A stretch of DNA of 64,000 nucleotides, taken from assembly GCA_964618625.1 (NCBI GenBank), contig CAZUBI010000001.1, forward strand, positions 164,781 through 228,780, written 5' to 3'. The notes below the pieces were generated by a model. That model made no database searches and was not told the DNA's origin. It was given only the letters and a program-made list of their open reading frames with translations. The translations under genes were made by a program, and so were the position numbers. Of this stretch, positions 12,592 through 30,277 are shown one piece after another. Origin of the DNA: an uncultured Candidatus Saccharibacteria bacterium (lineage in GTDB: Bacteria; Patescibacteriota; Minisyncoccia; UBA6257). Each line of letters begins with the position of its first letter. Position 1 is the first letter of the stretch.

Positions 12592-12592
12592 G

Positions 12593-13036: not shown

Positions 13037-13086
13037 CACGAAGGATATTTTAATTTTAATTTTATTTCTCAATTAATTTTTCGATC
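13037..13086. repeat. junction repeat (CGAAGGAT piece plus short variant)
   Basis: CACGAAGGATATTTTAATTTT ... TTCTCAATTAATTTTTCGAT. Confidence 0.7.
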
Positions 13087-13412: not shown

Positions 13413-13436
13413 ATTAATATTATGAATATTTTAGAA

Positions 13437-13462
13437 ATTTATTAATTTTTGACCCTTTGGTT
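13437..13462. repeat. junction repeat
   Basis: ATTTATTAATTTTTGACCCTTTGGTT. Confidence 0.7.
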
Positions 13463-14185
13463 TGGAGTGCTTAAGACTTCTTTTAAAAGTTGCGTAGCAG
13501 GATTAATAGGGCGCGCAATTCCAAGTCCAACGATTTCATATCTTTGTTGCTTTCCAACAATTGGTTTTGCAAATCGACCACTAATAAAACCTATGATCCT
13601 ACTAGATTTTTGAGAAAAAACTGGAGATCCACTAAATCCTTTGTCGCAATTTGTGTCTAAATAAAATAGCTCCGTTTTCTTTGTATTAGAATTCTTTTTG
13701 ATTGTAGCTATTATTGCATGAATATTTACAAAAGAAACGTTTTTTCTACCTGAAGAAATAGCCATTGTTGACTCGGGAAATCCAGAGAAAAAAAGTTTTT
13801 CACCTTCTTTAACTTTTTCAGAATCAGCAATAGCTAAAGGCTTAATGAACTGCTTTTTATCTTTATTAGCTCCCTCAGATATTTTCAGTAACTCAATAAT
13901 AACACAATCATTAATTATGTCTTGAGTTACAAATTTAGCATCACACATAATATAGTTAAATTCGTCTGATGAATCTAAAATCCAAATTTTTAGATTTCCC
14001 TTATCTTTATCAGGTATTTGATTATACACATGTGCCGCTGAAACAAAATAAGACGAGGATACACAAAAAGTTGTTCCTCTTATACCTAAAATTGTTTTTC
14101 CATTATTAGTACTGAAAAAACCAATAATCCCAATTGATGGTTTAACTCTCTCAATAAACTTCTCCAATGAATTTCTAAAACACAT
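13442..14185 (-). CDS. trypsin-like (S1/chymotrypsin-fold) serine protease
   Basis: 247 aa; VSAAHV (His block) and GFSGSPVF (Ser block, GDSGGP-like); C-terminus NQRVKN* is read from the junction repeat. Confidence 0.65.
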   Translation of the reverse strand: MCFRNSLEKFIERVKPSIGIIGFFSTNNGKTILGIRGTTFCVSSSYFVSAAHVYNQIPDKDKGNLKIWILDSSDEFNYIMCDAKFVTQDIINDCVIIELLKISEGANKDKKQFIKPLAIADSEKVKEGEKLFFSGFPESTMAISSGRKNVSFVNIHAIIATIKKNSNTKKTELFYLDTNCDKGFSGSPVFSQKSSRIIGFISGRFAKPIVGKQQRYEIVGLGIARPINPATQLLKEVLSTPNQRVKN

Positions 14186-14193
14186 AAATTTTT

Positions 14194-14213
14194 AAATTAA
14201 TTTTTGACCTTTT
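14194..14213. repeat. junction repeat
   Basis: AAATTAATTTTTGACCTTTT. Confidence 0.7.
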
Positions 14214-14270
14214 AAAATTTCTCCTAATTTTTTGGTGACTAGGACATAAATATAATTGCTTACTCGATAA

Positions 14271-16112
14271 TTATTTATTCTCATCAATTTGTGGTATAAG
14301 AAGTTGCGGTCGTTCTTTTATTTCTTGTTGAATAAATTTATCTAAGCTATCCTTTATTAAAATGAGTTGGGCGCGTTGTTTTTCTGTCAATTTAAATTCC
14401 ACATCTTTTAAATCTCCATCCTTAAATAAAATACCAAGCGCTTGTATTTCCCGAGGCTTACTAGGATTATTTGATGGTAAATTAAACTCGGTCCGAATAT
14501 TTTCTATAAGATCTCCGAAGTCATCTATTTCTTTCTTCAAAACCGTTTCTAAATTTTTACCAAATACTAACAACCTATTGTTAATTACTATCTCTGCATT
14601 TTTAACCTTCCTAATATCATCCATGGAAATATCGAAAGCGGTTGAATCTTTATTTTGAGCACTAGATTGATTAAGCACTTTAATAATTCTTTCGTTTATG
14701 CCATTTTCGCTGTTTGCCTCATCTCTATCAATCACTATAAGACAAGGGATTCCGAAAGCAGTAAGAAAAGTATAAATGGATGGAATATTATTTTTTCCAT
14801 CCGCTATTACCAACGCAAATTGATTTTTATCAATATTTGAAAAAGAATGAAATACCTCTGCGTCAGAGGGCCCTTCTACAATAACCGCTCTAGGAGCGAA
14901 AAGAGCTTCCCTCAAGCCGTTTGCAACTGTTTCAATAAGACTGTAATGAATATGTTGATCACTAATATTCTCTTTCTGTTGTCCCAAAGAAATTGTATGC
15001 TTCCTAAGTAGGGTACTATCCACATGTCTAACACTTATATTTTTATTTTCTTCCCATAAGACAACTATGTCTTCAAAGCTCCCGCAATCAATAAAATCTT
15101 CCGAATGAGTAGTATAAATTATTTGCCCTTCGGTATCCTCAGTTTTAATAGCTTGTTTCAAAACAGTAAACAAAGTTTTTCTTGCTTGTGGATGAAGGTA
15201 GCTTTCTGGCTCTTCTACTAAAAGCACAGCCCGATTATTTCTACTGTGTCTTTTCAAATAAGTTCGATAAATAGCTATAATTGCTAGTCTTTGAACACCT
15301 TCTCCTAATGTTTCCAACGGAACTTTGTTGCCATGTCTTTTAACCGAAAGCTTAAACTGACGATAATACCGCCATGGTTCATAATCAAGAAACTCCAGAT
15401 CTGTTCCACTAAGATTTAGAGGCTTAATCTGGCCCCAAAAAGTTTTTATATCTTTCTCAATATTCTTAAATTCCTGAGGGGCTCTTAATACCTTGACTGC
15501 ATCCGATATTTTCTTTTCAAATTCTTCTACTTTTTTCCCTTCATCTTCTTCGCTAAATATTCTTTCAACCTTCTGCAACATTCTCCCCAAAACACCCCAC
15601 TTGTTTGATGGTTGTTCGCCCTGAAGTTTTATCAGAGGAATCGTAATAACAACTGGTAAATTATTCTTGATATCCTGGCTTATTCTTATTTCGTTCTCCC
15701 ATTTATTTTTGGCTATTTCCCAATCACATTTATTAAAATCGTTTATCGTGTTGAGGAGAAAATAGTCAACACCAACAGAAGATTCACCATATCCAGTTTT
15801 TAAATGGTAGGCTTCAATAAGCAAACCGATAACTTCTTTATTTTCCCCGTAATAGGAAATTTCAATTGGGCTATTAAATTCCGCCGCTAGAATAATCTTT
15901 CTAGAAAGTTTATTGTTATAAAAATCATTTTCATTAAATTGGCTAGATGGCCATTTATCACCAAACAAAATATCTAGTGCCTTCAAAATGGTACTTTTGC
16001 CAACATTATTTGGACCAATCAAAGCAGTAAGACCAGAATTAGAAAATTCTATTATGACTGGTTCATCACCAAAACAGCGATAATTTTTTATTAGAAGCCT
16101 TTTTATAAACAT
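14271..16112 (-). CDS. OLD-family ATP-dependent endonuclease (AAA ATPase + Toprim)
   Basis: 613 aa; N-terminal Walker A GPNNVGKST in the LLIKNYRCF..LTALIGPNNVGKSTILKAL context typical of OLD/AAA_15-21; C-terminal Toprim block AVIVEGPSDAEVF. Confidence 0.8.
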   Translation of the reverse strand: MFIKRLLIKNYRCFGDEPVIIEFSNSGLTALIGPNNVGKSTILKALDILFGDKWPSSQFNENDFYNNKLSRKIILAAEFNSPIEISYYGENKEVIGLLIEAYHLKTGYGESSVGVDYFLLNTINDFNKCDWEIAKNKWENEIRISQDIKNNLPVVITIPLIKLQGEQPSNKWGVLGRMLQKVERIFSEEDEGKKVEEFEKKISDAVKVLRAPQEFKNIEKDIKTFWGQIKPLNLSGTDLEFLDYEPWRYYRQFKLSVKRHGNKVPLETLGEGVQRLAIIAIYRTYLKRHSRNNRAVLLVEEPESYLHPQARKTLFTVLKQAIKTEDTEGQIIYTTHSEDFIDCGSFEDIVVLWEENKNISVRHVDSTLLRKHTISLGQQKENISDQHIHYSLIETVANGLREALFAPRAVIVEGPSDAEVFHSFSNIDKNQFALVIADGKNNIPSIYTFLTAFGIPCLIVIDRDEANSENGINERIIKVLNQSSAQNKDSTAFDISMDDIRKVKNAEIVINNRLLVFGKNLETVLKKEIDDFGDLIENIRTEFNLPSNNPSKPREIQALGILFKDGDLKDVEFKLTEKQRAQLILIKDSLDKFIQQEIKERPQLLIPQIDENK

Positions 16113-16166
16113 AAAGATTTTAGTTCTTCAATTTTTCCCAATATTTCTTCCTATTTTTTATTATTT

Positions 16167-16238
16167 TTTATTTTCGACCTTTTTTATTTTTCAACTTGTC
16201 CTGAGCCTGTCGAAGGATTAATTTTTGACCTTTTGGTT
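16167..16238. repeat. junction repeat (partial copy plus long variant)
   Basis: TTATTTTCGACCTTTTTT ... TCAACTTGTCCTGAGCCTGTCGAAGGATTAATTTTTGACCTTTTGGTT. Confidence 0.8.
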
Positions 16239-16269
16239 ATTACGTTCAAAAATCAGACCTCATAATAAA

Positions 16270-17883
16270 TTAACTTTCGGACTCAGTGCCCATAGTCATA
16301 AAAGATACATTGTATCTAAATGCTCCATTCAATCTTTTTTGTGCATTTCGTAAATTTATTTTGCTAAAAAATGGAATATCAATTAAATTTCCATGCTTAC
16401 TGACAATCGCAAAAACAATTGTATATTCTGATGACTCTGGTCTTGTAATGGGCACTAATGATCTATGCGAAGAAGGTAAGATATCTCGCACTTTTTTTCT
16501 AAACTCTACATCAGACAAAAACAATTCTCCCGATACAAGACCTTGCGAAAATAGATGACTTAATACTGATGATGCGCCATATCGTTTGACATGAATAATC
16601 TTTTTATCACTGGTTAAAAGATCACAAAATTCAATCTTGCTATGGGCACCACCGTGAGAAACAAGTTTGCTATCCATATTACACACTCCTGAAAGCTCCA
16701 CGGATACTCTCTTATTATACTCGTCTTCCTTCTCTCCTTTTTGAGATTCTGGCAAACTAACAACTGGTGTAATCGTTCGGATACCCTCAAAATGATTATT
16801 AATTTCGTTAGCGAAATTAGTCTCTACTTCATACCATCTCCCATTGCTCAAAATATATGTTTTATCATTCTTTGTTAACTCTCCATATAAACAATTATAT
16901 GCTTTCCAGTGATCAATTAACTCCTCATTTTCTGCACCAATGCAATCAATAATTTCCGATTTAAATATTCCCAATGATAAATTATCACGAGCATTTGGAT
17001 CTAATGCCATAATAAAATCTTGTAAATAAATATCGTCACCTAGCGAATTTTTATTGCTTTCCATGCGAAATTCTAAAACTTTTTCCCATGGAATAATACT
17101 TGGAATTGCCATCCAAATTTTTTCTATATCTTCTATGCCTGAATTCTTAACTTTTTCTATCAGCTCATTATTTAATTCCTCAATAATCTTCGGGGATTTA
17201 ATTTCTGCAATATTATCTATCCAACTAAAATTGTTTTTATAATCACTACTATTATATTTTTCATAACATAATTTAAGAAAATTCTTGATATTTTTTAATT
17301 TTATTTTTATAGAAAGTGACAAAGCATCTTTTCCTGTAACTGTTTGTCCAAACTCTTCAAATTTCGATTTACCAGTCATTCCTTGTAGTAAATCTTGCTC
17401 AATATCAATTCCAAAATCTGCAACTGACCCACTTCTGGTCATTTGTTCAGTCACAAGCTTTGGAATAACTGTCATGTTCTTCCTATCAATATTTCTAATA
17501 TTCTCATGGTCAATTATATTAACTAAAACTTTGAGCCCAAACCGTTCTTCCCATACACCAGGATTCAAAAGCGTTCTACCATAACCAAATGTTACAGCAA
17601 ACAATCTACCTTCCACTTGAACAAGAAGGACTGCTTTTGCGCTGGCACTAAATATCTTAAGTTTATTATTGCCGTTTAGTTTTATATAATTATCAAAATC
17701 ACTCCCAAAAAACTTTTTAAGCCAAGTCGGTGAAAATATGTATGACTCCCCATAATAAATGTTCCCTACCTCATCTATTTGTTCGGTACTCAAATCATCA
17801 ACATTTTTAAAAATATCTACATCATTTGTATATTCATCTTTGATGAGATAAATCGTTAATTTGTTGCAATATTCTCTTGGCAT
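16270..17883 (-). CDS. hypothetical 537-aa protein immediately upstream of the OLD nuclease
   Basis: Long uninterrupted ORF; no motif I can assign; N-terminus MPREYCNKLTIYLIKDEY. Confidence 0.7.
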   Translation of the reverse strand: MPREYCNKLTIYLIKDEYTNDVDIFKNVDDLSTEQIDEVGNIYYGESYIFSPTWLKKFFGSDFDNYIKLNGNNKLKIFSASAKAVLLVQVEGRLFAVTFGYGRTLLNPGVWEERFGLKVLVNIIDHENIRNIDRKNMTVIPKLVTEQMTRSGSVADFGIDIEQDLLQGMTGKSKFEEFGQTVTGKDALSLSIKIKLKNIKNFLKLCYEKYNSSDYKNNFSWIDNIAEIKSPKIIEELNNELIEKVKNSGIEDIEKIWMAIPSIIPWEKVLEFRMESNKNSLGDDIYLQDFIMALDPNARDNLSLGIFKSEIIDCIGAENEELIDHWKAYNCLYGELTKNDKTYILSNGRWYEVETNFANEINNHFEGIRTITPVVSLPESQKGEKEDEYNKRVSVELSGVCNMDSKLVSHGGAHSKIEFCDLLTSDKKIIHVKRYGASSVLSHLFSQGLVSGELFLSDVEFRKKVRDILPSSHRSLVPITRPESSEYTIVFAIVSKHGNLIDIPFFSKINLRNAQKRLNGAFRYNVSFMTMGTESES

Positions 17884-17886
17884 ACT

Positions 17887-17914
17887 TTTTCAATTAATTT
17901 TTGACCTTTTGGTT
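17887..17914. repeat. junction repeat
   Basis: TTTTCAATTAATTTTTGACCTTTTGGTT, followed by GGGC (GTTGGGC). Confidence 0.8.
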
Positions 17915-18697
17915 GGGCAATTTTGAAGGTTGAATCTCTAAACGGTTTATTAAAAAATTACCAGATTCGAATTGTTCTTTTTGATTTTGATTTAAAGAAT
18001 TTTCTAAATATCCCAAAAGGTTATCCAAAATCTGTTTGCTATCTCCAACTAGTTGGTGATAGCTGTCAGAATTTCTAAGATCATTAAAATCCCATAAGGC
18101 TCTAAGCCCATTTTTAAAATTAGCCTTAAGAACAGTAATTATTTCTTCTATATGATTTTTTGCTTCTCCGATGTTTTCCGCAATTAAATATCTGATGGTT
18201 CTAAGGTAATAAAAAATTATTTGATTTTCAGGATCTAATAAGGTTTTTTGGAAAATACCCATCATTTGAATACTATTTATTGTTTCATCAAAATTATGGA
18301 AGTCTTTTATAAGTAAGTAAGCCTCTAAAAGTTCTAAGGTGGTATTAGAATCTGGTTTAATATATGAGGCTTCTTTTAACCTATTTATGGCGCTAATATA
18401 GTTTCTCGTTTTAATATGGCTCCTTCCATCCTGTTCTAATCTTTCAAATCTATTCTCTATTAGTTGCTTAAAAACAAGCCAAATAGAAAATATCGCGAAA
18501 ACTAAAATGCCTATTTGGGTTAAAAAATTCAAAAACCCAAATAACAAATTCAAGTCTTCTGCCATATCTAATCTCCGAATCATAGAAATTCCAAATATTA
18601 CCAAAATTAAAGTTCCTACCACGACCGTAGTCCAAAATCTTATATTAAAGGATGGAAACTTAAATATTTTTTCCCAAAATGTTTTTTTGTTATTCAT
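17894..18697 (-). CDS. membrane protein with cytoplasmic helical domain
   Basis: 267 aa; 2-3 N-terminal TM helices; C-terminus NQKVKN* is read from the junction repeat. Confidence 0.55.
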   Translation of the reverse strand: MNNKKTFWEKIFKFPSFNIRFWTTVVVGTLILVIFGISMIRRLDMAEDLNLLFGFLNFLTQIGILVFAIFSIWLVFKQLIENRFERLEQDGRSHIKTRNYISAINRLKEASYIKPDSNTTLELLEAYLLIKDFHNFDETINSIQMMGIFQKTLLDPENQIIFYYLRTIRYLIAENIGEAKNHIEEIITVLKANFKNGLRALWDFNDLRNSDSYHQLVGDSKQILDNLLGYLENSLNQNQKEQFESGNFLINRLEIQPSKLPNQKVKN

Positions 18698-18748
18698 ATT
18701 CTCTTAATCCTTTTGTTCGTTAAGATAATTTAAGCATTAAAGTCAAAT

Positions 18749-19039
18749 CTAAATTATTTTCTTTTTAAATTCTCTCATTTTTTTTCTTTCTGCATACTCC
18801 TTGAATGCTACCTGTTGTCCTTTGTCTTTTTCGTTTGTTTCCTTGGTCTCAACTTCGCCAATAATCTCTTCTTTACCTTTTTTTGCAATCCAATCAGGAA
18901 CATATCCCTTTATCTTTTTCGGCTTGTCATAGCCTGGAAGATCGGCTTTTACTTTATATCCTTGACCTTCATACCATTTAACACTTCTTAAAACTGCTTC
19001 ATCGTGTTGTTTTTGACCAATTTTGGTTCTTTTTTTCAT
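18749..19039 (-). CDS. small basic hypothetical protein
   Basis: 96 aa, Lys-rich; 2 bp downstream of the AIPR-like gene. Confidence 0.45.
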   Translation of the reverse strand: MKKRTKIGQKQHDEAVLRSVKWYEGQGYKVKADLPGYDKPKKIKGYVPDWIAKKGKEEIIGEVETKETNEKDKGQQVAFKEYAERKKMREFKKKII

Positions 19040-19041
19040 AA

Positions 19042-20670
19042 TTATTTTTCAATTAATTTTTCTACTACTTTCCAAGTTGCTTCATTTTTAAAAATATTAT
19101 TATAACTATATTCTTTGCCTTCCTTTTTTCTTATTATCTTAGCCGCTTTTTTGCAAAAATTAACAGCCTTTTTAAAACTTTGCACTTCTTTTTTATCGTA
19201 GTTATATAAAAAAGTCATAATATGAAAATTAGCATGATCTAAAAATGCTCTTTTGTTCTTATTATTGACGCCTTTTAATATCTTCTTCTCTCTTTTTATT
19301 TCTTCTTGTACAAAGATACAATAATCACAAATCTTTGTTATTTCATCTATTTTTAATTCTTCCTCGTTAAAAATCTCTTTGTATATTGATTTATCCCCTT
19401 TTATTATGTCAAATAGATCCTTTTTAGAAGATTTAGCTTTAGCTGGTTTCATATATTTACAAGAATAAATCCACTGCCCTAAATCAGTAATCAATATTTT
19501 GTCCTTAATTCCTGGCTTCTTTTTCCTTTGATATGAATAACCTTCTAGATTCAATATTTCTTCTAGCGTTTTTTGAATGAAATCATTTGTCCTAAGATCC
19601 CACTTATCTATTTTTCTTTGAGTATTAGTAGATTGGCAAACCGAATTTATCTCATTTTCATCCTCTGCCTCAAAAAGTCTAGTCAAAATCATAATTTTTT
19701 TACAGTCGCCTGCTAAAATTTCCTTATTTTGATACATATTATAAAGAGTACTTAATGATTGACATCCGTTTATAATTTGAGGATTGATAACATTAAAAAC
19801 ATATTTATCACTTATTTGTTTCAAATTCTTGCAGCTGACAGTAATACCATTATGAAAAAGATAAAATTTATTTTTTCGTTCTAAAATTGTATTTTTGAAA
19901 CTAAATTTTAGGCTTTTATCATTTTGATTAACTCTAATATTATCTTCAAAAATATTATATTTTTCATCATCTGCTTTTTCAAACATATCTAATAGTTTAA
20001 TCAATAAAACTTTACCAATAACAATACGATTTTTTTTATCATAAAAAGAACTATTATCTTGAAATTCTATCCTATCTAAAAAGTTAATCTTTTTCGAATA
20101 ATTAATATCTACTTTGACCAAATCTCTTAAATTAAGTAATTTCAATTCTACTCCTGTGTAATTATTGAGATGTGATTCTAGATTTTTTTTTAATTTATTC
20201 TCCGCATTCTTTTTGTCTGAATATCTTATTATGTTTAAATATATTTTATAATTTCCTTTTAAAAATCTTTTCCTTGCTTCCTTAATCTTCTTTGCCGCCA
20301 AAGGATTTAAATTATGCAAAGAAGTATTTGGATTGAAAAAATTCCTTTTTAATTCTTCTAAAAAACCATTAAGAATACTCTGACGATCAAATCCCTCGCT
20401 TTTAACATCTAAAATATTAATCTGCTTTTTTGCCTTGTTTACAACTATCGCATCAACCCCTCCATCCTTTTTTCCATCCGTAATCAATTCTTTATTATAT
20501 ATTTCATCATTATTAAAGCCAAAAAGTATTTTTATAATAGTTATGATCGCAGCATAAGCGTTTTCGCTCGAGCCCTTCATAGAATAATGTTCTCGATTGT
20601 GACTGAAAATCTTTTTAGCTAATTTAAAATCTTGATTTATTCTCCTTTCTATATATTCTTTTAAAAGCAT
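19042..20670 (-). CDS. AIPR-family (abortive infection phage resistance) protein
   Basis: 542 aa; N-terminal ITDGKKDGGVDAIVV block resembles the AIPR DG..DGGIDA signature; C-terminus EKLIEK* overlaps a junction-repeat copy. Confidence 0.6.
   Translation of the reverse strand: MLLKEYIERRINQDFKLAKKIFSHNREHYSMKGSSENAYAAIITIIKILFGFNNDEIYNKELITDGKKDGGVDAIVVNKAKKQINILDVKSEGFDRQSILNGFLEELKRNFFNPNTSLHNLNPLAAKKIKEARKRFLKGNYKIYLNIIRYSDKKNAENKLKKNLESHLNNYTGVELKLLNLRDLVKVDINYSKKINFLDRIEFQDNSSFYDKKNRIVIGKVLLIKLLDMFEKADDEKYNIFEDNIRVNQNDKSLKFSFKNTILERKNKFYLFHNGITVSCKNLKQISDKYVFNVINPQIINGCQSLSTLYNMYQNKEILAGDCKKIMILTRLFEAEDENEINSVCQSTNTQRKIDKWDLRTNDFIQKTLEEILNLEGYSYQRKKKPGIKDKILITDLGQWIYSCKYMKPAKAKSSKKDLFDIIKGDKSIYKEIFNEEELKIDEITKICDYCIFVQEEIKREKKILKGVNNKNKRAFLDHANFHIMTFLYNYDKKEVQSFKKAVNFCKKAAKIIRKKEGKEYSYNNIFKNEATWKVVEKLIEK
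19046..19065. repeat. junction repeat (CTAC subtype; inside the AIPR-like ORF 3' end)
   Basis: TTTTCAATTAATTTTTCTAC. Confidence 0.75.
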
Positions 20671-22505: not shown

Positions 22506-22694
22506 TTATTTTTTTGGCTTCCAATCACTAATTGTAATTGTTTTCTTTTTTTCGTTTATTTTAAGTTCAACTTTCTGTCTTTCTCTCCAGCGCCATTTTC
22601 GAATAATATCTATAGGCAAAGTAACAGCATAGCTTTTTTTGCCTACTTTTGTAATTTTTCTAATATTTTTTTCTTTAATTTTTCTCCTTGGCAT
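22506..22694 (-). CDS. AbrB/SpoVT/MazE-family small DNA-binding protein (controller-like)
   Basis: 62 aa; KVGKKSYAVTLPIDIIRKW..ELKINEKKKTITI swapped-hairpin pattern; three ATTACGTAAT palindromes in its own leader. Confidence 0.65.
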   Translation of the reverse strand: MPRRKIKEKNIRKITKVGKKSYAVTLPIDIIRKWRWRERQKVELKINEKKKTITISDWKPKK

Positions 22695-22703
22695 TTTGAT
22701 TGT

Positions 22704-22745
22704 TTACGTAATATATTACGTAATTTATTACGTAATCCTATTATA
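22704..22745 (-). promoter_or_regulatory. promoter -10 (TATAAT) plus three tandem ATTACGTAAT palindromic operator boxes, 12-bp period
   Basis: Minus-strand reading: GGTATAATAGG ATTACGTAAT AA ATTACGTAAT AT ATTACGTAA ACAATCAAA ATG. Confidence 0.6.
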
Positions 22746-22814
22746 CCATTTTTTGTTTCAACCAACTATTATATATAGTACCCCTGTTATAAGATATTTT
22801 CAAACCCCAAAAAA

Positions 22815-22895
22815 TAACAAAAAAAGCCCTTAATTAGGCTTAAGATTTTGAAATGGTTCAGGAGGAGTAAGTAATTTATTACTTATTCCTCCTGA
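22815..22895 (-). terminator. conserved 3' element T1 (large GGAGG-containing hairpin, then AAGCC..GGGCTT hairpin plus U-tract)
   Basis: AAAAAAGCCCTTAATTAGGCTTAAGATTTTGAAATGGTTCAGGAGGAGTAAGTAATTTATTACTTATTCCTCC; similar copies at 23945-24015 and 27052-27145. Confidence 0.6.
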
Positions 22896-22901
22896 TATAC
22901 T

Positions 22902-23801
22902 TCAAATAACATAATATGTACTACGACAATGATAGTCATAGCACTTTTTCATTACCGCTTTAATAGCAGAATGAAAACATGACAATATTCCCGGTAATTC
23001 ATTCGGTTGCCCAGACCATATTTCTTTTTGCTCTATCCAGCATCTATTTCTCTTTTGAACTATAGAACATTGAATTAGATAAATTTTCTCTCCGTGATAA
23101 CCCTGACTACCTCTAGCAAGTACCGCAACTTGTGGAATCGAGAAATAGGCATGAATGCCATTAGACAAACTGCCACTTTTCGGTACCCAATATGGACGAA
23201 AAGCTTGTCCTCTTCTCCCACAAATAATTGTGGCACTCCCTCCGCTTGCCGTACTACCTCCTTCTTCAACCAATTCCATGCGAAGTTGCATATTGATTGA
23301 ATTAGGAATTAAAAACTTTGGTTTTTCCACTGCCTCTTTTTCCATCATCTTTTTATTCCTGTACCAATCTGCATATTCTCTTATAACGGTTGGTACATCT
23401 TGAGTCTTTAATTTCATCTCCTTTAAGGAATACCATGTTGTATAACGATCTCTACGATTATATCCTTTTTCATAAATCCATTGACTTGACCCAATAAGAA
23501 ATCTAAATTTCTCTTTAATCCCCCCTCTATCTTGATTTGCAACTTCAATAGTTCGAATAAAAAATAGTATATCATGGTAAAAATCCTTATCCCATCCCGA
23601 TTTATCCGGATCTTCTGGTTTTTCTTGTTCAAATCTTCCCTCTATTTCTGCGAGTTCAAGTGAATCAACTTTTTTAAGATTTATAACAATTCCTCCTCTA
23701 ACAATACGAGAATTGAATCCCTTATTTGTAAGAGATTCTTCCAAATCTTGATGTTCACCATAATGAAATCCGCTAATTTTGATTTCTTTTATTTCTCTCA
23801 T
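22902..23801 (-). CDS. hypothetical protein (module a cargo)
   Basis: ORF-track frame 22902-23867; likely start at MREIKEIK (ATG 23801), which is preceded by AAGGAG SD; the upstream codons in the track belong to the conserved leader. Confidence 0.6.
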   Translation of the reverse strand: MREIKEIKISGFHYGEHQDLEESLTNKGFNSRIVRGGIVINLKKVDSLELAEIEGRFEQEKPEDPDKSGWDKDFYHDILFFIRTIEVANQDRGGIKEKFRFLIGSSQWIYEKGYNRRDRYTTWYSLKEMKLKTQDVPTVIREYADWYRNKKMMEKEAVEKPKFLIPNSINMQLRMELVEEGGSTASGGSATIICGRRGQAFRPYWVPKSGSLSNGIHAYFSIPQVAVLARGSQGYHGEKIYLIQCSIVQKRNRCWIEQKEIWSGQPNELPGILSCFHSAIKAVMKKCYDYHCRSTYYVI

Positions 23802-23930
23802 TTCTTTCTCCTTTGTTCCCTTGCCTGTCATTACCAGATCAGGACTTGTGGAAACTAAAATTATCAAAGAACAGGCTAGTATCTAGCTTTATGCTAACAT
23901 ATTGGTGCTTAATCGTCAAGTATATAAATA
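23802..23930 (-). promoter_or_regulatory. conserved promoter plus 5' leader (module a)
   Basis: Leader CCTGATCTGGTAATGACAGGCAAGGGAACAAAGGAG shared with modules b and c; upstream TGTTCTTTGATAATTTTA block and TTGACG -35-like element. Confidence 0.5.
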
Positions 23931-23944
23931 ATGCCCCCGGCAAT

Positions 23945-24015
23945 AAAAAAAAGCCCTTAATTGGGCTTAAAGTTTTGGAAGGAGTAAGTATTTATTGCTT
24001 ACCCCTTCCGTTTTT
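23945..24015 (-). terminator. conserved 3' element T2
   Basis: AAAAAAAAGCCCTTAATTGGGCTTAAAGTTTTGGAAGGAGTAAGTATTTATTGCTTACCCCTTCC; hairpin plus T-run on the minus strand. Confidence 0.6.
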
Positions 24016-24023
24016 ATAATCTT

Positions 24024-24518
24024 TTATCTATATATTCCTTTCAGTGTGCAACCATAAAGATTAAACTCTATGCTTCTTATATCTCGATAAATATAAGTCG
24101 GGACTCGTACTTCTTTCTTACCAATTTTTATCCAAATACCATTATCCTTAATTTCAAAGGGAATATTCCTCTTAGTGTTTAAAAAATATAGTTCAACTAA
24201 TCTCTTCTTCTTCTTCTTTTGCTGTAGTTGATAATCCTTCATTATCTCAAAACAAATTTTCCAAGATGCCACTATTTCTTCTCCGCAGCTCTCTTCTTCA
24301 CAATTAATAGTAATCTCTTCTTCTTCTCCTGAAAAAAGAACTTCCTTTTCTAATCTCTTTTCTATCATTTTTCTTACAAAATCTTTGCTGGGAACACTTA
24401 TATCATCAACGTATTCTGCTGTCTGATCTAATGGAATACAAAACCCATTAATATACAAACCCTCTAAATTTGAAGAAATAAGCTTGACCTCTCCCCACAA
24501 TGTTTTAATTCTTGCCAT
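24024..24518 (-). CDS. hypothetical protein (module b, second gene)
   Basis: 164 aa; Glu-rich and Cys-containing; 38 bp downstream of module b gene 1. Confidence 0.55.
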   Translation of the reverse strand: MARIKTLWGEVKLISSNLEGLYINGFCIPLDQTAEYVDDISVPSKDFVRKMIEKRLEKEVLFSGEEEEITINCEEESCGEEIVASWKICFEIMKDYQLQQKKKKKRLVELYFLNTKRNIPFEIKDNGIWIKIGKKEVRVPTYIYRDIRSIEFNLYGCTLKGIYR

Positions 24519-24556
24519 TTTCTTTCCTCCTCTTTTATTTTTTTATCATTTATTCA

Positions 24557-24919
24557 TTACTTTTTTACTTTCAAAACAGAATCTAATTCATTTAATATCA
24601 AAACTTTCATTCTATTAATTGTTTCTTTAAATCCTATCTTTAGGTCCTCCTTTTTTAGAAAATACTTTTTTACGGGTGTTCTGCACTCTAATAAGCTAGC
24701 AGAAATGAGGAAATATTTTCCAAGAAGCTCTAATTCAAAAATCATTCCTGTAGCAGACAATTTAAACTCTATCTCGTATCCAGCATCTTGCGTCCCATAT
24801 ATTTCAATGGAATCTTTCAATATTCCTTCACTTCCTTCACCAAAACTCTCAATTATATAATCAATCACCCATTTTACCTTAGACGGGATATATCCAATAC
24901 CACCAATTTTCATTTTCAT
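24557..24919 (-). CDS. hypothetical protein (module b, first gene)
   Basis: ORF-track frame 24557-24949; likely start MKMKIGG (ATG 24919), which is preceded by GGAGG SD. Confidence 0.55.
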   Translation of the reverse strand: MKMKIGGIGYIPSKVKWVIDYIIESFGEGSEGILKDSIEIYGTQDAGYEIEFKLSATGMIFELELLGKYFLISASLLECRTPVKKYFLKKEDLKIGFKETINRMKVLILNELDSVLKVKK

Positions 24920-25050
24920 CTCTTTCCTCCATATTACCTTGCCTGTCATAAGTGCATCAGGGCTTATCGGTTTTTTTCAAAAAACTATACTATTATCTTG
25001 TATAATAGTATATTAACAGTAGACTGTCAAGTATATAAAATCACTGGCAA
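24920..25050 (-). promoter_or_regulatory. conserved promoter plus 5' leader (module b); upstream terminator hairpin
   Basis: Minus-strand reading: TTGACA-gtctactgttaatatac-TATTAT, then leader ..CCCTGATGCACTTATGACAGGCAAGGTAATATGGAGGAAAGAG ATG; ACTGGCAAATTGCCAGT hairpin just upstream. Confidence 0.6.
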
Positions 25051-25113
25051 ATTGCCAGTTTAAGAGTTTAAAGGTTTAAAGATTAAGAGATCTTTCGTTA
25101 TTGCTCAGGATGA

Positions 25114-26127
25114 CTATGAGATTGCCAGAAAAATAGATCTAAATATTTTATCAACTTCTTCTTTATAGAGATAACCCTCCTTAGCAAGAGTACTTCTTAC
25201 GGGACTGATCTCCTTATCGACAAAGGTCTGATCTCCTATTTTGTAAGTCTCAGTTTTTGTCTTAAATTTTGTCAAAGAATCACAGGGAGTACTTGCTAAT
25301 GGAAAACTATTAACTACACGCAATAAAGTGCCTGACACAATAAAGCGTCCTACTCTTAGCATATCAAAAACTTTATTTCTATCTTTACTTTCTTTGATAT
25401 AAGAAACAACAGAACTCTTGTTCTTGCCTTCAAGAAATACAACATCAAATCCTTGATATTTCCCCTTGCGAATTTTAACGTCTTTGGGGAATTTATTCTT
25501 CACTTCTCCCATTGCCTTTTCCAACTCCTTAATCTGTTCTTTAGTTATATAATCCTTCATCACACCACTTTTAAAAAGTTCCCTCAGAGTAGTTTTATCA
25601 CTCATTCCTGGTATGCTCATTCCTGGAACAGAAGCGTCTAAAAAGCCCTGCGTTGGCACTAAACGACGGCTTTCCAGAATTTGTTTGGCTGTTTTCTCAT
25701 TAGCGAGTTCTGTGATAATAATAAAACCATGATAATCAAATTTTTCTGCCACAGGAGCAAGTAAATCATCTTGTTTCAAGCTTTCTATTGCCTCGCTGCT
25801 TTGCTCTTTCAACTTTTGCACTTTTTGGATGAGATCCGTCTGCCCAAATGCTTGAGCATACGATTCCAGCATTTGCTCACCTTCTTGTTGAGCTCTTTCC
25901 CATATCTTTGGACCGTGTGGACGTTCTGAACCAATTATAATCGTTTGGCTAGTTTCACTTTCTGCAAAAACTCTTGGATTGATAAAATTAAGGTCAGCAT
26001 TACGCCGAGGGTCAATATGACCGATTTTTACCTTAAATCTTGTTTCATCTGCCTGACGTAAGATTTCCTCCCATTGTTTGGTAAGAAGCCAACTTTTAGA
26101 CAATATTTTAGTTATTTTTACCCCCAT
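25114..26127 (-). CDS. hypothetical protein
   Basis: 337 aa ORF; no recognisable motif. Confidence 0.6.
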   Translation of the reverse strand: MGVKITKILSKSWLLTKQWEEILRQADETRFKVKIGHIDPRRNADLNFINPRVFAESETSQTIIIGSERPHGPKIWERAQQEGEQMLESYAQAFGQTDLIQKVQKLKEQSSEAIESLKQDDLLAPVAEKFDYHGFIIITELANEKTAKQILESRRLVPTQGFLDASVPGMSIPGMSDKTTLRELFKSGVMKDYITKEQIKELEKAMGEVKNKFPKDVKIRKGKYQGFDVVFLEGKNKSSVVSYIKESKDRNKVFDMLRVGRFIVSGTLLRVVNSFPLASTPCDSLTKFKTKTETYKIGDQTFVDKEISPVRSTLAKEGYLYKEEVDKIFRSIFLAIS

Positions 26128-26192
26128 TTTTATAATATTAATAGGATGAGAATAAATTGTTAATTTTTAAACAATCCCATTGTGGATAACTC

Positions 26193-26221
26193 TTGCTTGA
26201 CATAAGGTTTTTTGATATAAT
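26193..26221 (+). promoter_or_regulatory. sigma70-type promoter with extended -10
   Basis: TTGCTT, 17 bp spacer, then TGATATAAT (TGnTATAAT); no protein-coding gene lies downstream on the plus strand. Confidence 0.55.
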
Positions 26222-26227
26222 GCAGAT

Positions 26228-26314
26228 GGTGCTTGGAGGGCCTTGGCCCTGTCACGGCTATATCCAAGCTGTACCCAAGTACCACTAAAGAATACCGTAA
26301 AAACGGTATTTTTT
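26228..26314 (+). ncRNA. candidate small RNA (~85 nt)
   Basis: Own promoter; GC-rich structured body (GGTGCTTGG pairs with CCAAGTACC; internal AGGGCCTTGGCCCT hairpin); ends in ACCGTAAAAACGGT hairpin plus TTTTTT. Confidence 0.35.
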
Positions 26315-26320
26315 AGTTGT

Positions 26321-26806
26321 TTAATCATTTTCAAGGTCTCCACTGTGTAAAATTCTCTTACTTGTTACTTTATCAACGCCCCAAAATGGAACTACGCTCC
26401 AAAAATGCTTTTCTCCGCCTAACACTTGTTTAATAATCACTTTTAGTCTTATAGTATCTATAACTGCAGTAAATTCATAATATATTACATCTTTCATAAC
26501 CTGCTCCCACCTGCTATTCATCTTTTGAACTTCAAATCTTCTTATTTGCCAAATACCTTGTAAAGTATGGGATCGTTTTAAAACTTCTGGCGCGAAATGA
26601 ATAAGTTTTAATCTTGAGTATTGATCTTTTTTAGGTCTGGCTTGCCTATTTGATTTAAATTTTAAATGTTTTAATCCTTTTGTGTTAAAAGCAATTTTTT
26701 CTTTAAAATAGGGGCAATAAATATCATTAATTGTTTTATAGAATTTTTCTGCTCCATTTTTAACTTTTAAAAAATCTTTTTCATCTTTAAAATTAAATTT
26801 TCCCAT
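26321..26806 (-). CDS. hypothetical protein
   Basis: 161 aa ORF; extended -10 TGATATAAT about 70 nt upstream on the minus strand. Confidence 0.55.
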   Translation of the reverse strand: MGKFNFKDEKDFLKVKNGAEKFYKTINDIYCPYFKEKIAFNTKGLKHLKFKSNRQARPKKDQYSRLKLIHFAPEVLKRSHTLQGIWQIRRFEVQKMNSRWEQVMKDVIYYEFTAVIDTIRLKVIIKQVLGGEKHFWSVVPFWGVDKVTSKRILHSGDLEND

Positions 26807-27051
26807 ATACTAAAAACATATCTTTTAATTTTCCCCATCAGTATGGTTCGACTTCACTCACCACAAGCTTTGTTTTTATTATGTAGTTATATTATATCAT
26901 AATCATGGTATATTCTTACCATAAATCAGGTTTTTATTTTGTTTACTCTTCTTTTAATAATTGCGCAAGAATCGCGCAAGAATCGCGCAAACAAAACCCA
27001 TTGTTTTCTCTTTATATTTTACCCTTATTAAGAGGTGTTTTCAAACCTCAA

Positions 27052-27145
27052 AAAACAAAAAAAGCCCTTAATTAGGCTTAAAATTTTGAAATGTTTGGGA
27101 AGGAGTAAAATATTATGATTTTCATAATACTTTACTCCTTCTATT
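27052..27145 (-). terminator. conserved 3' element T3
   Basis: AAAAAAAGCCCTTAATTAGGCTTAAAATTTTGAAATGTTTGGGAAGGAGTAAAATATTATGATTTTCATAATACTTTACTCCTTC. Confidence 0.6.
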
Positions 27146-27173
27146 CTTTATAAATACGTGTTCTTTAGGGAAA

Positions 27174-27530
27174 TTAAACAAAATCCTCAATTTTTGGCCC
27201 CCTCGAGGGATCAAATCCGATCCAAACTCCCTCGATCCAAGTTCCATTCTTGTTGAATCTTTTTCCAGCAGCTATTCTCTTTACAATCTTTTGTAAATTA
27301 CAGAGAATAGCTTTCCGTCTTCCAAGAATAAAAATTTTATCCACAAAAGGCCCAGTACTACCTCTACCACGCATATGCAACACTAAATTTAAGATTGAAC
27401 ATTGATTCTCGCTTAAAACTTTCTTAAGAACTTTTAAAATTTCCTCTTTGGTTGCTAATAAACTATCTTCTTTGGTCCCCGGGTCTTCCCACAAAGAAAT
27501 TTCCTTTGTGAGAATTTGTGGCATTCCCAT
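27174..27530 (-). CDS. hypothetical protein (module c cargo)
   Basis: ORF-track frame 27174-27590; likely start MGMPQ (ATG 27530) after AAGGAG SD; the first ~25 residues resemble those of module a. Confidence 0.55.
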   Translation of the reverse strand: MGMPQILTKEISLWEDPGTKEDSLLATKEEILKVLKKVLSENQCSILNLVLHMRGRGSTGPFVDKIFILGRRKAILCNLQKIVKRIAAGKRFNKNGTWIEGVWIGFDPSRGPKIEDFV

Positions 27531-27680
27531 TTCTTTTCTCCTTGTTCCCTTGCCTGTCGTTACCAATCCGATCAGGACTTTTGGGAACATATAAAATTAT
27601 CAAAGAACATTCTACTATTTATATAATGATATATTAATATATTTATATAATGGTATATTAATAATTGATTGTCAACAACT
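27531..27680 (-). promoter_or_regulatory. conserved promoter plus 5' leader (module c)
   Basis: TTGACA-atcaattattaatatac-CATTAT, then TGTTCTTTGATAATTTTA..AAGTCCTGATCGGATTGGTAACGACAGGCAAGGGAACAAGGAG ATG. Confidence 0.55.
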
Positions 27681-30277
27681 TAATCTTCGGTCTGGTGGCG
27701 GACAATGAAATAATGTTTTGCCGCTTCAATAAAACCTAATTCTATTATGCCCAGGGTAACAATAATTAACCAATCATAAACTCCTAATGGGGCAGTCTTT
27801 AAAAGTGTTTGAAATAAAGGCACATAAACAGCGACAACTAGCATTATTATTCCAATAATGACTGAACCTATTAAAAATTTGTTAGAGAAAAGATTTATGT
27901 GCCATAAATTCTTGCGTAAGCTTTTACAAGAAAAAACATAAAAAAGCGAATCTATAGTAAGGCAGGCAAAAATCATTGTCCTGATATAAGTAATATCAAA
28001 ACCTTGTTTCCATAACCAGAAGAATAATCCTAGAAGTATTAAATCAGTAATCACTCCGATAATCACAATTATGAATTTCATCTCTTTGGTTAACAAAGGA
28101 ACTTCATGAGCCGCAGGTTTCTGCTGCATTATTTCTTTTTCTTTCGGCTCAAAAGCCAAAGCCATACCAGGTAAGCCATCTTCTATTAAATTAACCCATA
28201 AGATCTGTACTGCTATTATTGGTAAAGGAAGCCCAACAAAAATACTGGTTCCTACTAAGATTATTTCAGTAAAACTATCTGAAAGCAGATAAGTAATAAC
28301 CTTTCTAATATTATCAATAATAACTCTTCCCTCTTCTATGGCTTTAACAATAATAGAAAAACTGTCATTTAATAGAATTAAATCAGAACTTTCTTTTGCC
28401 ACAGCTGTTCCAGAGCCTAAAGCTATTCCAATATCAGCTTTTTTCAAAGCTGGCGCGTCGTTTATTCCATCGCCAGTCATTGCTACAACTTCACCTTTGT
28501 CCTGCCAAGCGCCAATAATCCTCATTTTATGTTTAGGCTCTACTCTGGAATAAATCTGTATCTTATCCAAAATTTCTTCAAATTCTTTATCAGAAAGTTT
28601 ATCTAAATCCATTCCTTCTAAAATATTTTCTTTTGTTATTTTAAAGCCTAATTCTTCTGCAACAGCTTTAGCTGTTAATTTATGGTCGCCAGTAACAATA
28701 ATGGGTCTCATACCAGCTTTTCTACAAATTCGCATTGCTTGTTTCACCTCTTTGCGAATTGGATCACTTAAAGCAATAAAACCTGTAAAAATAAAATCAT
28801 AACAAAGAGCTTCTAATCCTTTAATTTCATAGGTTATATTCTCGCTTTTTTCAACTTTTCTGCATCCTGTGGCAAGTACGCGCAAGCCTTTGCCAGTTAA
28901 TTCTTTTAATTTTTCTTCTAATTTTCTCTTTTCTTGATCAGTTAAATTACTTCTTTCAAAAATTCTTTCTGGAGCGCCGCAAATATACAAATTCATTTCG
29001 CCTGATTCTTGATAAAAAGCAGCGGCAAATTTATTTATAGGATTAAAAGGAACTTCGGATAATTTACCTTCTTCCATCTTTTTCTTCATATTAATCAATC
29101 CATTTTCAATTCCAGCTTCTAATAAAGCCCTGTCTGTGGGCCTTCCCCTTAAAATCCATTTTTTCATAATATCATCGGGATTTTCAATAAACGCTTCTGA
29201 TGTTAAAACAGCTGATTTAAGAATCAAAGATTTATCACCAATTATTTCACTAACTTTCATTTTCCCTTTTGTTAAAGTCCCGGTTTTATCAGTACATATT
29301 ATGCTGGTATTTCCCAAAGTTTCTGCTGAAGATAGTTTTCTTATTAATCCTTTCTTTTTTAATACTTTTTGCATTCCTAAAGCTAAAATAACTGTTATTG
29401 CCACAGGCAATCCTTCAGGTATGGCGGAAACAGCAATAGCGACAGAAGTAGTAAACATTTCTACAAATTCTTTTCCCTTTATTATTCCCTCAAAAAAGAT
29501 AAAGGCACAAATAATAGTAATGCCTATTCCAATCATAGTTGAAAAACTTGTTAGTTTCTTCTGGTATGGAGTTTTTCTTTCTGGCGCCTCTTTTACCATT
29601 TTGGCAATCTTTCCAATCTCTGTATATATACCAGTATTTACCACAATCGCTTTGCCTTTCCCAGCTTCTATCACACATCCCATATAAACCATATTATCCC
29701 TGTCCATCAAATGCGTCTGGCCTAATAATGTTCTGGAAATTTTTTCTGATGGCAGCCACTCGCCAGTCAAAGCCATTTCATTAACTTTTAAGCCCTGGAA
29801 CTCAATAATTCTTGCATCTGCAGGAACTTTATCCCCAGGATTTAGAATAATAATATCTCCAGGAACTAATTCTTCAGAATTGATAATTTTTAAATTCCCA
29901 TTCCTGAGAACTTCGGATTCCTGTTTAACAACTTCTTTTAATGCTTTTAAAGCGTTTGAAGTTCTATTTTCCTGAACAAAACCAACTGTAGTATTTACAA
30001 GTATAGCCGCCCAAATAACAATAGTATCAGCAAACTCTTTTAAAAGTAAAGTAACAATTCCAGCAACTATTAGAATATAAACAAAGGGGCTATGAAACTG
30101 CTCCAAATATATTTTTAATTTTGATAATGGCTTTTCTTCAGGAAGCTTATTTTTGCCAAATTCTTTTTCACGGATTTTTATTTCTTCACCAGATAATCCT
30201 TGTTTTAAATCTGAGTTTAATATTTGTAATGCTTCCTGCCAAGAAAGACTATGCCACATTCTATTCATTAATATCAT
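27680..30277 (-). CDS. cation-transporting P-type ATPase, type II (Ca2+/Mg2+ family)
   Basis: 865 aa; DKTGTLT phosphorylation site, PEGLP in TM4, [11 protein letters not shown] hinge, 8-10 TM helices. Confidence 0.9.
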   Translation of the reverse strand: MILMNRMWHSLSWQEALQILNSDLKQGLSGEEIKIREKEFGKNKLPEEKPLSKLKIYLEQFHSPFVYILIVAGIVTLLLKEFADTIVIWAAILVNTTVGFVQENRTSNALKALKEVVKQESEVLRNGNLKIINSEELVPGDIIILNPGDKVPADARIIEFQGLKVNEMALTGEWLPSEKISRTLLGQTHLMDRDNMVYMGCVIEAGKGKAIVVNTGIYTEIGKIAKMVKEAPERKTPYQKKLTSFSTMIGIGITIICAFIFFEGIIKGKEFVEMFTTSVAIAVSAIPEGLPVAITVILALGMQKVLKKKGLIRKLSSAETLGNTSIICTDKTGTLTKGKMKVSEIIGDKSLILKSAVLTSEAFIENPDDIMKKWILRGRPTDRALLEAGIENGLINMKKKMEEGKLSEVPFNPINKFAAAFYQESGEMNLYICGAPERIFERSNLTDQEKRKLEEKLKELTGKGLRVLATGCRKVEKSENITYEIKGLEALCYDFIFTGFIALSDPIRKEVKQAMRICRKAGMRPIIVTGDHKLTAKAVAEELGFKITKENILEGMDLDKLSDKEFEEILDKIQIYSRVEPKHKMRIIGAWQDKGEVVAMTGDGINDAPALKKADIGIALGSGTAVAKESSDLILLNDSFSIIVKAIEEGRVIIDNIRKVITYLLSDSFTEIILVGTSIFVGLPLPIIAVQILWVNLIEDGLPGMALAFEPKEKEIMQQKPAAHEVPLLTKEMKFIIVIIGVITDLILLGLFFWLWKQGFDITYIRTMIFACLTIDSLFYVFSCKSLRKNLWHINLFSNKFLIGSVIIGIIMLVVAVYVPLFQTLLKTAPLGVYDWLIIVTLGIIELGFIEAAKHYFIVRHQTED

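Follow-up and report, generated by a model that had tools for sequence, protein, structure and literature searches.

The 64,000-nucleotide (nt) stretch of contig CAZUBI010000001.1 analyzed here, called the window throughout, is bacterial chromosome, as it contains rpoB/rpoC, nrdD with an intein, and clpB. It also encodes a P-type ATPase whose close homologues carry the names Candidatus Nealsonbacteria or Patescibacteria. Past the stop codon of the ATPase gene lie three units, termed modules a, b and c, whose genes are all on the minus strand. A sequence-only reading of this DNA had claimed that the three modules share a promoter, a leader and a 3' element and differ in the genes, or cargo, enclosed. 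The components were assigned as listed below, where SD is the Shine-Dalgarno sequence, aa are amino acids, and P1 and P2 are two predicted helices of the leader RNA.

27680-30277, minus strand: P-type (Ca2+-type) ATPase gene, the conserved left anchor of a variable island in most related loci fetched
27647-27675, minus strand: promoter of module c, TTGACA-N17-CATTAT, 10/12 in the consensus scan
27531-27610, minus strand: leader of module c, with box TGTTCTTTGATAA at 27597-27609 and SD AAGGAG at 27538-27543
27583-27588 with 27544-27549, minus strand: P1 of module c, GTTCCC with GGGAAC
27573-27576 with 27553-27556, minus strand: P2 of module c, CCTG with CAGG
27174-27530, minus strand: cargo c, 118 aa
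27099-27141, minus strand: cargo-specific long hairpin of module c, 20 bp, -25.8 kcal/mol, with an A-rich tract before it
27057-27081, minus strand: intrinsic terminator of module c, stem 27062-27079 plus T-run
25002-25030, minus strand: promoter of module b, TTGACA-N17-TATTAT, 11/12 in the consensus scan
24920-25001, minus strand: leader of module b (type 2), with SD at ~24926-24930
24969-24971 with 24936-24938, minus strand: P1 of module b, ACC with GGT
24958-24961 with 24942-24945, minus strand: P2 of module b, CCTG with CAGG
24557-24919, minus strand: cargo b1, 120 aa
24024-24518, minus strand: cargo b2, 164 aa
23946-24009, minus strand: 3' element of module b, hairpin 23977-24009, then conserved terminator 23946-23970
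23891-23919, minus strand: promoter of module a, TTGACG-N17-TAGCAT with TG, 9/12 plus TG in the consensus scan
23802-23890, minus strand: leader of module a, with box at 23861-23873 and SD at 23808-23811
23850-23855 with 23815-23820, minus strand: P1 of module a, GTTTCC with GGGAAC
23840-23843 with 23824-23827, minus strand: P2 of module a, CCTG with CAGG
22902-23801, minus strand: cargo a, 299 aa, a single open reading frame (ORF)
22819-22894, minus strand: 3' element of module a, hairpin 22859-22894, then conserved terminator 22819-22843

The claim of common flanks was borne out. The leader core YGACAGGCAAGGKAAYA was found as three perfect copies in the 64 kb (23814-23830, 24932-24948 and 27543-27559), where about 0 were expected and where shuffled sequence gave a mean of 0.57 matches even with three mismatches permitted. 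The 25-nt terminator TTAAGCCYAATTAAGGGCTTTTTTT was likewise present exactly three times (22819-22843, 23946-23970 and 27057-27081), with 0 expected. Both the leader and the terminator blocks were found independently in a repeat search (families D12 and D13). An alignment of the upstream and downstream blocks, which the sequence-only reading had proposed as a check, was made with MAFFT and showed conservation block by block. The conserved upstream pieces were the -35, the -10, the box TGTTCTTTGATAA (a and c only), AAGYCCTGAT, GACAGGCAAGG and the SD, and the conserved downstream piece was TTYCAAAAYYTTAAGCCYAATTAAGGGCT7. The spacing CCTGAT-N8-TAAY holds in module c but not in a and b, where it is N4, and TGTTCTTTGATAATTTTA, ascribed to all modules, is present in a and c but not in b. 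The hairpin GGAGGAGTAAG...CTTACTCCTCC, which had been taken for a classic terminator, comes first in gene orientation and has no T-run after it. In that orientation, the intrinsic terminator is the distal AAGCC-loop-GGGCTT hairpin followed by T7, and the consensus scan called terminators at all three of these hairpins. The promoter of module c begins 5 nt past the ATPase stop codon and is followed by a 24-nt tandem duplication of the -10 region (about 27612-27659).

A further terminator-like hairpin at 25043-25059 (minus strand) lies directly upstream of the -35 of module b and is the terminator of an upstream gene for a 337-aa protein. The hairpin before the -35 of type-2 promoters covaries (ACTGGCAATTTGCCAGT / ACTGACAATTTGTCAGT / ACTGGCAGCATAGCTGCCA), with equivalents in the related loci L008, L056, L055 and L069; together with the type-2 promoter, it is a conserved terminator-promoter junction.

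The DNA similarity between modules a and c stops at the SD/ATG. A relationship between the first ~25 residues of proteins a and c had been proposed and was not recovered, as no N-terminal BLASTP alignment was obtained and 2899 of 5000 shuffles scored equally well. Window modules a and b have an upstream ATG in frame, which accounts for the automated calls of 309-312 aa for protein a. A leader peptide with an upstream start codon was considered and rejected because neither the frame nor the ATG is conserved: among the related leaders described below, the upstream ATG is missing in three, the leader-to-ATG distance places the ATG in any of the three frames, and stop codons interrupt the upstream frame in L007, L008 and L077. 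On this comparison, the leader is non-coding.

The modules were placed at the entrance of a large, defense-rich variable island, since the ATPase gene lies on one side and, past module a, a MazE/AbrB-like gene, a type II methyltransferase with its endonuclease, and AbiU/AIPR follow, with DUF6119, an OLD-family ATPase and Mrr farther along the window. More than 20 related loci were fetched via five homologues of protein a and via ATPase orthologues. In these loci, the orthologous ATPase gene is followed by the units, and the content varies from strain to strain; in L072 and L073, a radical-SAM gene intervenes between the ATPase gene and the island. An nhmmer profile of the promoter-leader found 19 distinct copies, and copies were seen in or beside the island except for the one in L007. 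A pattern scan of the islands showed that the order of leader, one to five genes, hairpin and terminator recurs in every island. In sister strains, at least 10 different genes occupy the first position behind this promoter-leader, and the proposal of conserved flanks with swapped cargo was thereby upheld.

Leaders of orthologous cassettes were 60-68% identical, compared to 70-75% for their coding sequences (CDS), and the non-orthologous leaders inside the window were 61-67% identical over the whole 120-150 nt. Sub-blocks of the leaders are identical, and some inter-strain pairs are far closer, the leaders of L056 and L058 being near-identical. Since the leaders are no closer than the CDS or than the non-orthologous leaders of the window, conservation was deduced to be restricted to the motif blocks, a pattern that argues for functional constraint rather than recent copying. 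GACAGGCAAGG is near-invariant, the unpaired AAG (J1) and UAAUGA (loop) are conserved, and P2 is spaced 25-28 nt from the ATG in 16 of the 19 leaders. No terminal inverted repeats, which together with target-site duplications and multiple dispersed copies would mark a MITE or an IS-derived mobile promoter, were found bracketing the promoter-leader.

A search of metagenomes for the flanks with other cargo had also been suggested by the sequence-only reading. Scanning with the exact leader pattern gave only three true matches: a locus identical to module c (L005), a locus with synteny to the window (L008), and L007, which has one cassette with a new 141-aa cargo, located between a HAD-like gene and radC and with near-identical terminator copies on both sides. 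The same pattern gave chance matches only in 185,579 reference genomes (Dyadobacter, Thermococcaceae and Bacteroidales), and its 44 matches in 2.9 million viral contigs were all due to chance; none had flanks resembling those of the leader, and most lay in unrelated contigs of higher GC. With Rfam 15 at the gathering threshold, the sole match in the 64-kb window was a tRNA, and at E<=10 no match overlapped any leader and no family was found for the 3' element.

A second, unrelated promoter-leader family (ACTTGACAAAATCATGAAATAGGTGGATACTT...GGAGTTTTGTATATACTACATAAAGGTCG...) was observed in L069 at ~9830, 10505 and 12105 as three repeats at the equivalent island position. From this, the reuse of 5' regions was deduced to be a general habit of the island.

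Direct data on cargo replacement were obtained from two near-identical strain pairs in which the DNA between the flanks is wholly replaced. Over 4 kb, loci L056 and L058 share 98.9% identity, which extends across the promoter, leader and SD, ends ~3 nt before the ATG and returns at the terminator stem AGCCCAATTAAGGG. Between these points, one locus has 0.9 kb (proteins of 123 and 133 aa) and the other has 2.0 kb (five genes), and the two are unrelated. Loci L072 and L073 encode an identical ATPase protein and are 98.4% identical as far as the island, where they differ, with homology returning at terminator copies. Comparison of the window with L070, L055, L069 and L072 gave a mosaic of short matches at terminators and leaders with blocks of unrelated or reordered genes between them. 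No tyrosine or serine recombinase, integrase or transposase domain was found in the gene lists of the 20+ related islands or in the scanned ORFs of the window, a scan that did not cover every small ORF. The exchange would thus appear to be of the RecA type after DNA uptake rather than site-specific, and natural transformation is plausible because a comEC gene is nearby in syntenic loci.

An all-versus-all BLASTP comparison of 49 island proteins assigned the cargo to families a (5 members), b1 (3) and b2 (6) and to a diverse c superfamily (15). The cargo of module b had been described as unrelated to that of a and c. This holds inside the window but not across strains, where the four families occur jointly in single operons, each behind one leader: c'-a-c''-b2 in L056, c'-b1-c''-x-b2 in L058, a-c'-b2 in L062 and b1-c' in L069. 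As the families share operons in sister strains, the window was deduced to contain one gene set split into three co-controlled units. Family a comprises 5 clusters among 5.8 billion proteins, and family c comprises 34 clusters that form a lineage-restricted superfamily of 115-166 aa with cargo c as its founder. By exhaustive HMMER searching, the N-terminal ~45 aa and the C-terminal ~125 aa of protein a were found to belong to a wider, unannotated family of ~185 aa, relative to which the middle ~110 aa of protein a are an insertion. This family is widespread (384 representatives) and has the conserved motifs E-GGG-TNTG, GHLSNG-HA-FSV and CYHCR.

No match to Pfam, PADLOC 2.0, PHROG or NCBIfam was found for a, b1, b2 or c, leaving the toxin/immunity pairs that had been suggested unsupported, and PADLOC gave no match for 40 members of the wider a-type family. 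Sequence searches of PDB with a, c and wider-a profiles returned only spurious antibody 'VESGGG' matches, the AlphaFold model of a was not usable (predicted local distance difference test score, 48), and the gene neighborhoods of two members of the wider a-type family showed no consistent partners. In two contigs that resemble the candidate phyla radiation (CPR), L080 (3655-4000) and L081 (3622-4000), members of the ~185-aa family follow a tRNA gene and a TTGACA promoter and have a long (170-230 nt), GC-rich 5' untranslated region with no Rfam match.

At the 3' end, 17 units have a long, near-perfect hairpin of 11-20 bp and -17 to -28 kcal/mol right after the stop codon. The base of this hairpin is conserved (GGAAGGAG/CUCCUUCC, also given as GGAAGGAG/CTCCTTCC) and the center differs in each unit. 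An A-rich tract precedes it (of 10 nt, 6-8 are A in most of the cleanly parsed cases) and no U-run follows, so that on the opposite strand the hairpin resembles a terminator. Together with the conserved terminator in sense orientation, it would insulate each unit from both sides.

The structure of the leader RNA was studied with an alignment of 18 leaders made by hand. The predicted fold consists of two nested helices that end 2-5 nt before a strong SD: P1 closes an asymmetric internal loop with the conserved AAG, and P2 (CCUG/CAGG) has a 9-16-nt loop ending in UAAUGA. P1 has a constant CC/GG core that is extended outward in one leader type (GUUCCC/GGGAAC, with AUUCCC/GGGAAU in L073) and inward in another (ACCUCA/UGAGGU and AACCUUA/UAAGGUU). 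The pair beside this core is A-U in nine sequences, C-G in four, U-A in one and U-G in one. In P2, CCUG/CAGG is changed to CCUA/UAGG in two leaders and to CCUG/UAGG in one, corresponding to a change from G-C to A-U with a G-U intermediate. On the hand-made alignment, the leader covariation that the sequence-only reading had suggested looking for was above shuffles: 67% of cells were paired, compared to 60.3% in shuffles (reached in 0 of 500), and the covariation score was 0.172, compared to 0.080 in shuffles (0 of 500) and 0.02-0.10 for slid controls. The minimum free energy (MFE) structure is P1+P2 in 9 of 17 leaders, and the folding z-score is <= -2.3 in 8 of 17, the lowest being that of module c (-3.97, with an MFE of -17.7 kcal/mol). 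Moderate support from covariation is thus available for the predicted two-helix fold.

Taken as a whole, these data are probably best explained by portable, insulated expression cassettes whose conserved ends serve both as common control signals and as homologous-recombination junctions, one unannotated gene set having been split and re-assorted among strains. Modules a, b and c would be copies of a self-contained cassette that is specific to one clade of Candidatus Nealsonbacteria and that consists of a strong sigma-70-type promoter, a ~85-nt non-coding leader, one to five genes, a cargo-specific hairpin and an intrinsic terminator. The cassettes would populate a hypervariable island immediately 3' of the P-type ATPase gene and beside recognized defense genes. 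The conserved ends would provide each unit, wherever inserted, with identical signals for transcription, translation initiation and termination, and would also be the sites at which homologous recombination joins different cargo, perhaps after natural transformation. Through recombination at these ends, strains may exchange, split and re-assort units. Of this picture, the data show the repeats with their block-wise conservation, the island setting, the joint occurrence of the cargo families, the breakpoints at the flanks, and the pairing potential of the leader with some covariation. The activity of the promoters, an action of the leader as RNA on translation or stability, exchange of the RecA type rather than site-specific exchange, and whatever biological role the cargo may have are inferred.

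Several points weigh against this explanation. The region is AT-rich, and its overall count of predicted promoters is not above that of shuffles (24 versus 20.7). Breakpoints at conserved blocks are expected from any homologous recombination, so they do not imply that the flanks are kept for exchange, and the junction analysis rests on two strain pairs. The structural alignment was fitted by hand to the structure and is hence biased in its favor, P1 has just 3 bp in window module b and in L008, and 6 of 17 leaders have a register-shifted fold as their MFE structure. The covarying sequences come from few lineages and hence represent few independent events. Finally, RNAalifold retained only the 4-bp P2 when given a plain MAFFT alignment, because differences in J1 length shift the 5' arm of P1.

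The nearest described phenomenon is promoter reuse by putative mobile promoters, more than 4000 families of which comprise similar upstream regions before non-homologous genes (Matus-Garcia, Nijveen & van Passel 2012, PMC3488235). These are found within one genome and across related genomes, were read as recyclable regulatory sequence, and are defined by non-homologous genes being preceded by 50-100 nt of homologous sequence at >=80% identity (PMC3488235). The similarity of 5' regions before non-homologous first genes is common to both. The unit described here differs in its larger size and its two sides (a 5' side of promoter, structured leader and SD and a 3' side of hairpin and terminator), in being confined to one island, in its block-wise identity (61-67% over the whole 120-150 nt in the window rather than a uniform >=80%), and in the direct breakpoint evidence of cargo replacement between strains. 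The setting also resembles known defense islands and hotspots, in that a strain-variable region at a fixed site contains AbiU, restriction-modification, OLD-family and Mrr-type genes. In known hotspots, however, the recombination arms are the flanking core genes, whereas the present island is also divided into exchangeable sub-units by repeated non-coding arms in its interior, and the cargo studied here matches no known defense family in PADLOC.

If the cassette explanation is correct, the consequences would be of interest for CPR/Patescibacteria, which have tiny genomes and almost no experimentally characterized regulation. The insulated promoter-leader-terminator unit would supply native expression parts, and the leader is a candidate new cis-regulatory RNA for the phylum. 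A streamlined genome may keep one locus highly plastic by means of short non-coding homology arms that subdivide it, and the clean cassette-replacement junctions in a CPR genome are among the chief points of interest. The four unannotated, co-occurring protein families, one of which is tied to the ~185-aa family, are a candidate new system inside a defense island.

A tentative second possibility is that the flanks are conserved mainly because the leader RNA works as a sensor that switches all units together, be it as a riboswitch, as a thermometer or by binding a protein or small RNA, with recombination at the flanks as a by-product. It is compatible with the cassette explanation and may add to it. 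The proposed toggle would be between the SD-free P1+P2 fold and the shifted fold. In the latter, each C-rich arm pairs with the G-rich segment that follows, SD included, or else the SD or spacer is paired with the upstream UUCUUUG box. These two mutually exclusive nested folds are made possible by three segments rich in pyrimidines and three rich in purines, and with a longer 5' context the unpaired probability of the SD is <=0.26 in 11 of 16 leaders (range 0.00-0.87). Given the alternative folds and an SD that is mostly predicted to be paired, a switch between SD-free and SD-masked folds is possible. The conserved unpaired nucleotides, the near-invariant block, the fixed spacing between P2 and the ATG, and the block-wise conservation despite 60-68% overall identity are all consistent with a sensing element. 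The leader also resembles preQ1-I and SAM-II riboswitches and fourU/ROSE thermometers in being a short, structured, SD-proximal element with alternative pairings that involve the SD and with conserved unpaired nucleotides. It differs from such small cis-regulatory RNAs in having no Rfam match and in preceding heterogeneous, unannotated genes, and neither a ligand nor a pseudoknot was identified; as the cargo has no metabolic annotation, it offers no clue to a ligand. Also counting against a sensing element are the shortness of P2 (4-5 bp around a large loop) and, in some copies, of P1 (3 bp), and the ease with which AT-rich purine/pyrimidine tracts pair by chance.

A possible trans-acting partner for such a sensing element is a conserved candidate small RNA of the island, which carries CCUUGGCCCUGUCA, complementary to leader UGACAGG-CAAGG with a 2-nt bulge. 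The small RNA is convergent with a gene for a 161-aa protein, has no Rfam match, and is 92-95% identical by BLASTN to copies in three strains, as listed below.

26229-26318 (region 26190-26325), plus strand: candidate small RNA of ~90 nt in the window, with promoter TTGACA-N17-TATAAT at 26197-26226 and a strong terminator at 26284-26317
4848-4983 of L056: copy of the candidate small RNA
13801-13936 of L070: copy of the candidate small RNA
6097-6212 of L072: copy of the candidate small RNA

As a regulator of the leader, this RNA was rejected because its duplex energies with leaders were no better than those of shuffled small RNAs (z -1.1 to +0.7). It is also invariant across strains with differing leaders and was not found in the L055, L062 and L069 loci.

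A more far-reaching proposal, which we regard as rather unlikely, is that CPR bacteria have in these flanks a dedicated system, independent of a recombinase, for exchanging and co-regulating cassettes. The leader, as a new structured RNA, would then sense a common signal (e.g., infection or host contact) and turn on a strain-variable arsenal, the genes would be continually re-assorted via the leader and terminator handles after natural transformation, and the island small RNA could be a trans-acting controller.

It is improbable that the flanks are neutral leftovers of an ancestral operon that was duplicated and whose copies lost different genes, the flanks having no special role and being alike only through descent or gene conversion. 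This would account for the union of a, b1, b2 and c in one operon of relatives and for the complementary subsets found in the window, and promoter reuse before non-homologous genes is common in prokaryotes (PMC3488235). Neutral decay would be even, however, whereas the flanks are 57-67% identical overall with identical blocks of 11-25 nt, and these blocks persist in 19 leaders before at least 10 different first genes in several strains. Furthermore, the helices keep their pairing via two-sided changes, and the 3' hairpins differ in sequence and remain near-perfect.

Very little probability was given to an integron-like, site-specific system in which the 3' hairpin and/or the terminator would be the site of a dedicated recombinase. 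The resemblance to integron cassettes lies in the array of small units at a fixed anchor, with hairpin-ended units that have conserved ends and a variable center and with strain-variable cargo. The 3' hairpin with its conserved base GGAAGGAG/CTCCTTCC and cargo-specific center is at the 3' end of each unit, and the L007 cassette, between direct terminator repeats, resembles an insertion with site duplication. The earlier designation as a cassette system was, on this comparison, retained in a loose sense only, as no integrase or transposase was found in the island gene lists or the scanned window ORFs, nor any attC-type site, attI or Pc. An attC site is an inverted repeat of imperfect match that includes extrahelical bases and R''/L''-L'/R' boxes and has its GTTRRRY core at the cassette boundary. 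Integron cassettes are mostly promoterless and are expressed from Pc, and intI encodes a tyrosine recombinase. In contrast, the 3' hairpins here are near-perfect palindromes without GTTRRRY and without the extrahelical bases that confer strand selectivity on attC, and each unit has its own promoter (of the TTGACA-N17-TATTAT type) and terminator. The hairpin also moves with the cargo, as the observed right junction is in the terminator, downstream of the hairpin, and the left junction is at the SD/ATG, within ~130 bp of homology.

The last alternative, a polymorphic effector family with a shared N terminus and variable C terminus and possibly toxin/immunity pairs, had been suggested by the sequence-only reading. 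In its favor, automated ORFs extend through the leader (P0001, 309 aa; P0002, 312 aa) and yield apparent shared peptides such as MTGKG..KEM, and the island is variable and adjoins defense genes. It has next to no probability and is already refuted at the sequence level, since the true N termini of a and c are unrelated, the leader is non-coding by the loss of its ATG and frame described above, a strong SD at the correct spacing precedes the downstream ATG, and no toxin, immunity or secretion domains were found.

Apart from the cassettes themselves, two unannotated genes intervene between modules c and b, at 26321-26806 (minus strand, 161 aa) and 25114-26127 (minus strand, 337 aa). Their proteins are 80-88% identical across strains, compared to 53-66% for orthologues of the cassette cargo. 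The 161-aa protein gave a weak match to PtuB (E=0.02), and no other match in Pfam, PADLOC, PHROGs or NCBIfam was found for either gene. Short palindromic repeats, GTCATTGCGAGCGAGC...GCGTGGCAATC and TTGCGCAAGAATCGCGCAA, recur in the intergenic regions between cassettes at the following positions.

26940-26975 and 25085-25110 of the window: palindromic intergenic repeats
590-650 of L007: palindromic intergenic repeat
1330-1370 and 520-560 of L008, minus strand: palindromic intergenic repeats

In several strains, the MazE/AbrB-like gene (22506-22694 in the window) marks the distal limit of the cassette region. Its promoter region at 22700-22760 (minus strand) contains three tandem ATTACGTAA palindromes, which are kept in L070 and are likely an autoregulatory operator. 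The AbrB/MazE-like protein was also considered as a regulator of the cassettes, but, from inspection of the sequence, the three TTACGTAA palindromes of its promoter are missing from the cassette promoters.

Two observations were made elsewhere in the window. The anaerobic ribonucleotide reductase NrdD at 44882-48217 (minus strand) has an intein bearing a LAGLIDADG homing-endonuclease domain. Another repeat, (AACC)AAAAGGTCAAAAATTAATTGARAAATAAAAT, presumably the first cassette system to which the sequence-only reading alluded, occurs at 3776-19061 among minus-strand genes, a few to a few dozen nt before the start codon of 13+ consecutive genes that often have no obvious SD, and at 19031 this motif codes for the C terminus (..EKLIEK*) of the AbiU/AIPR protein.

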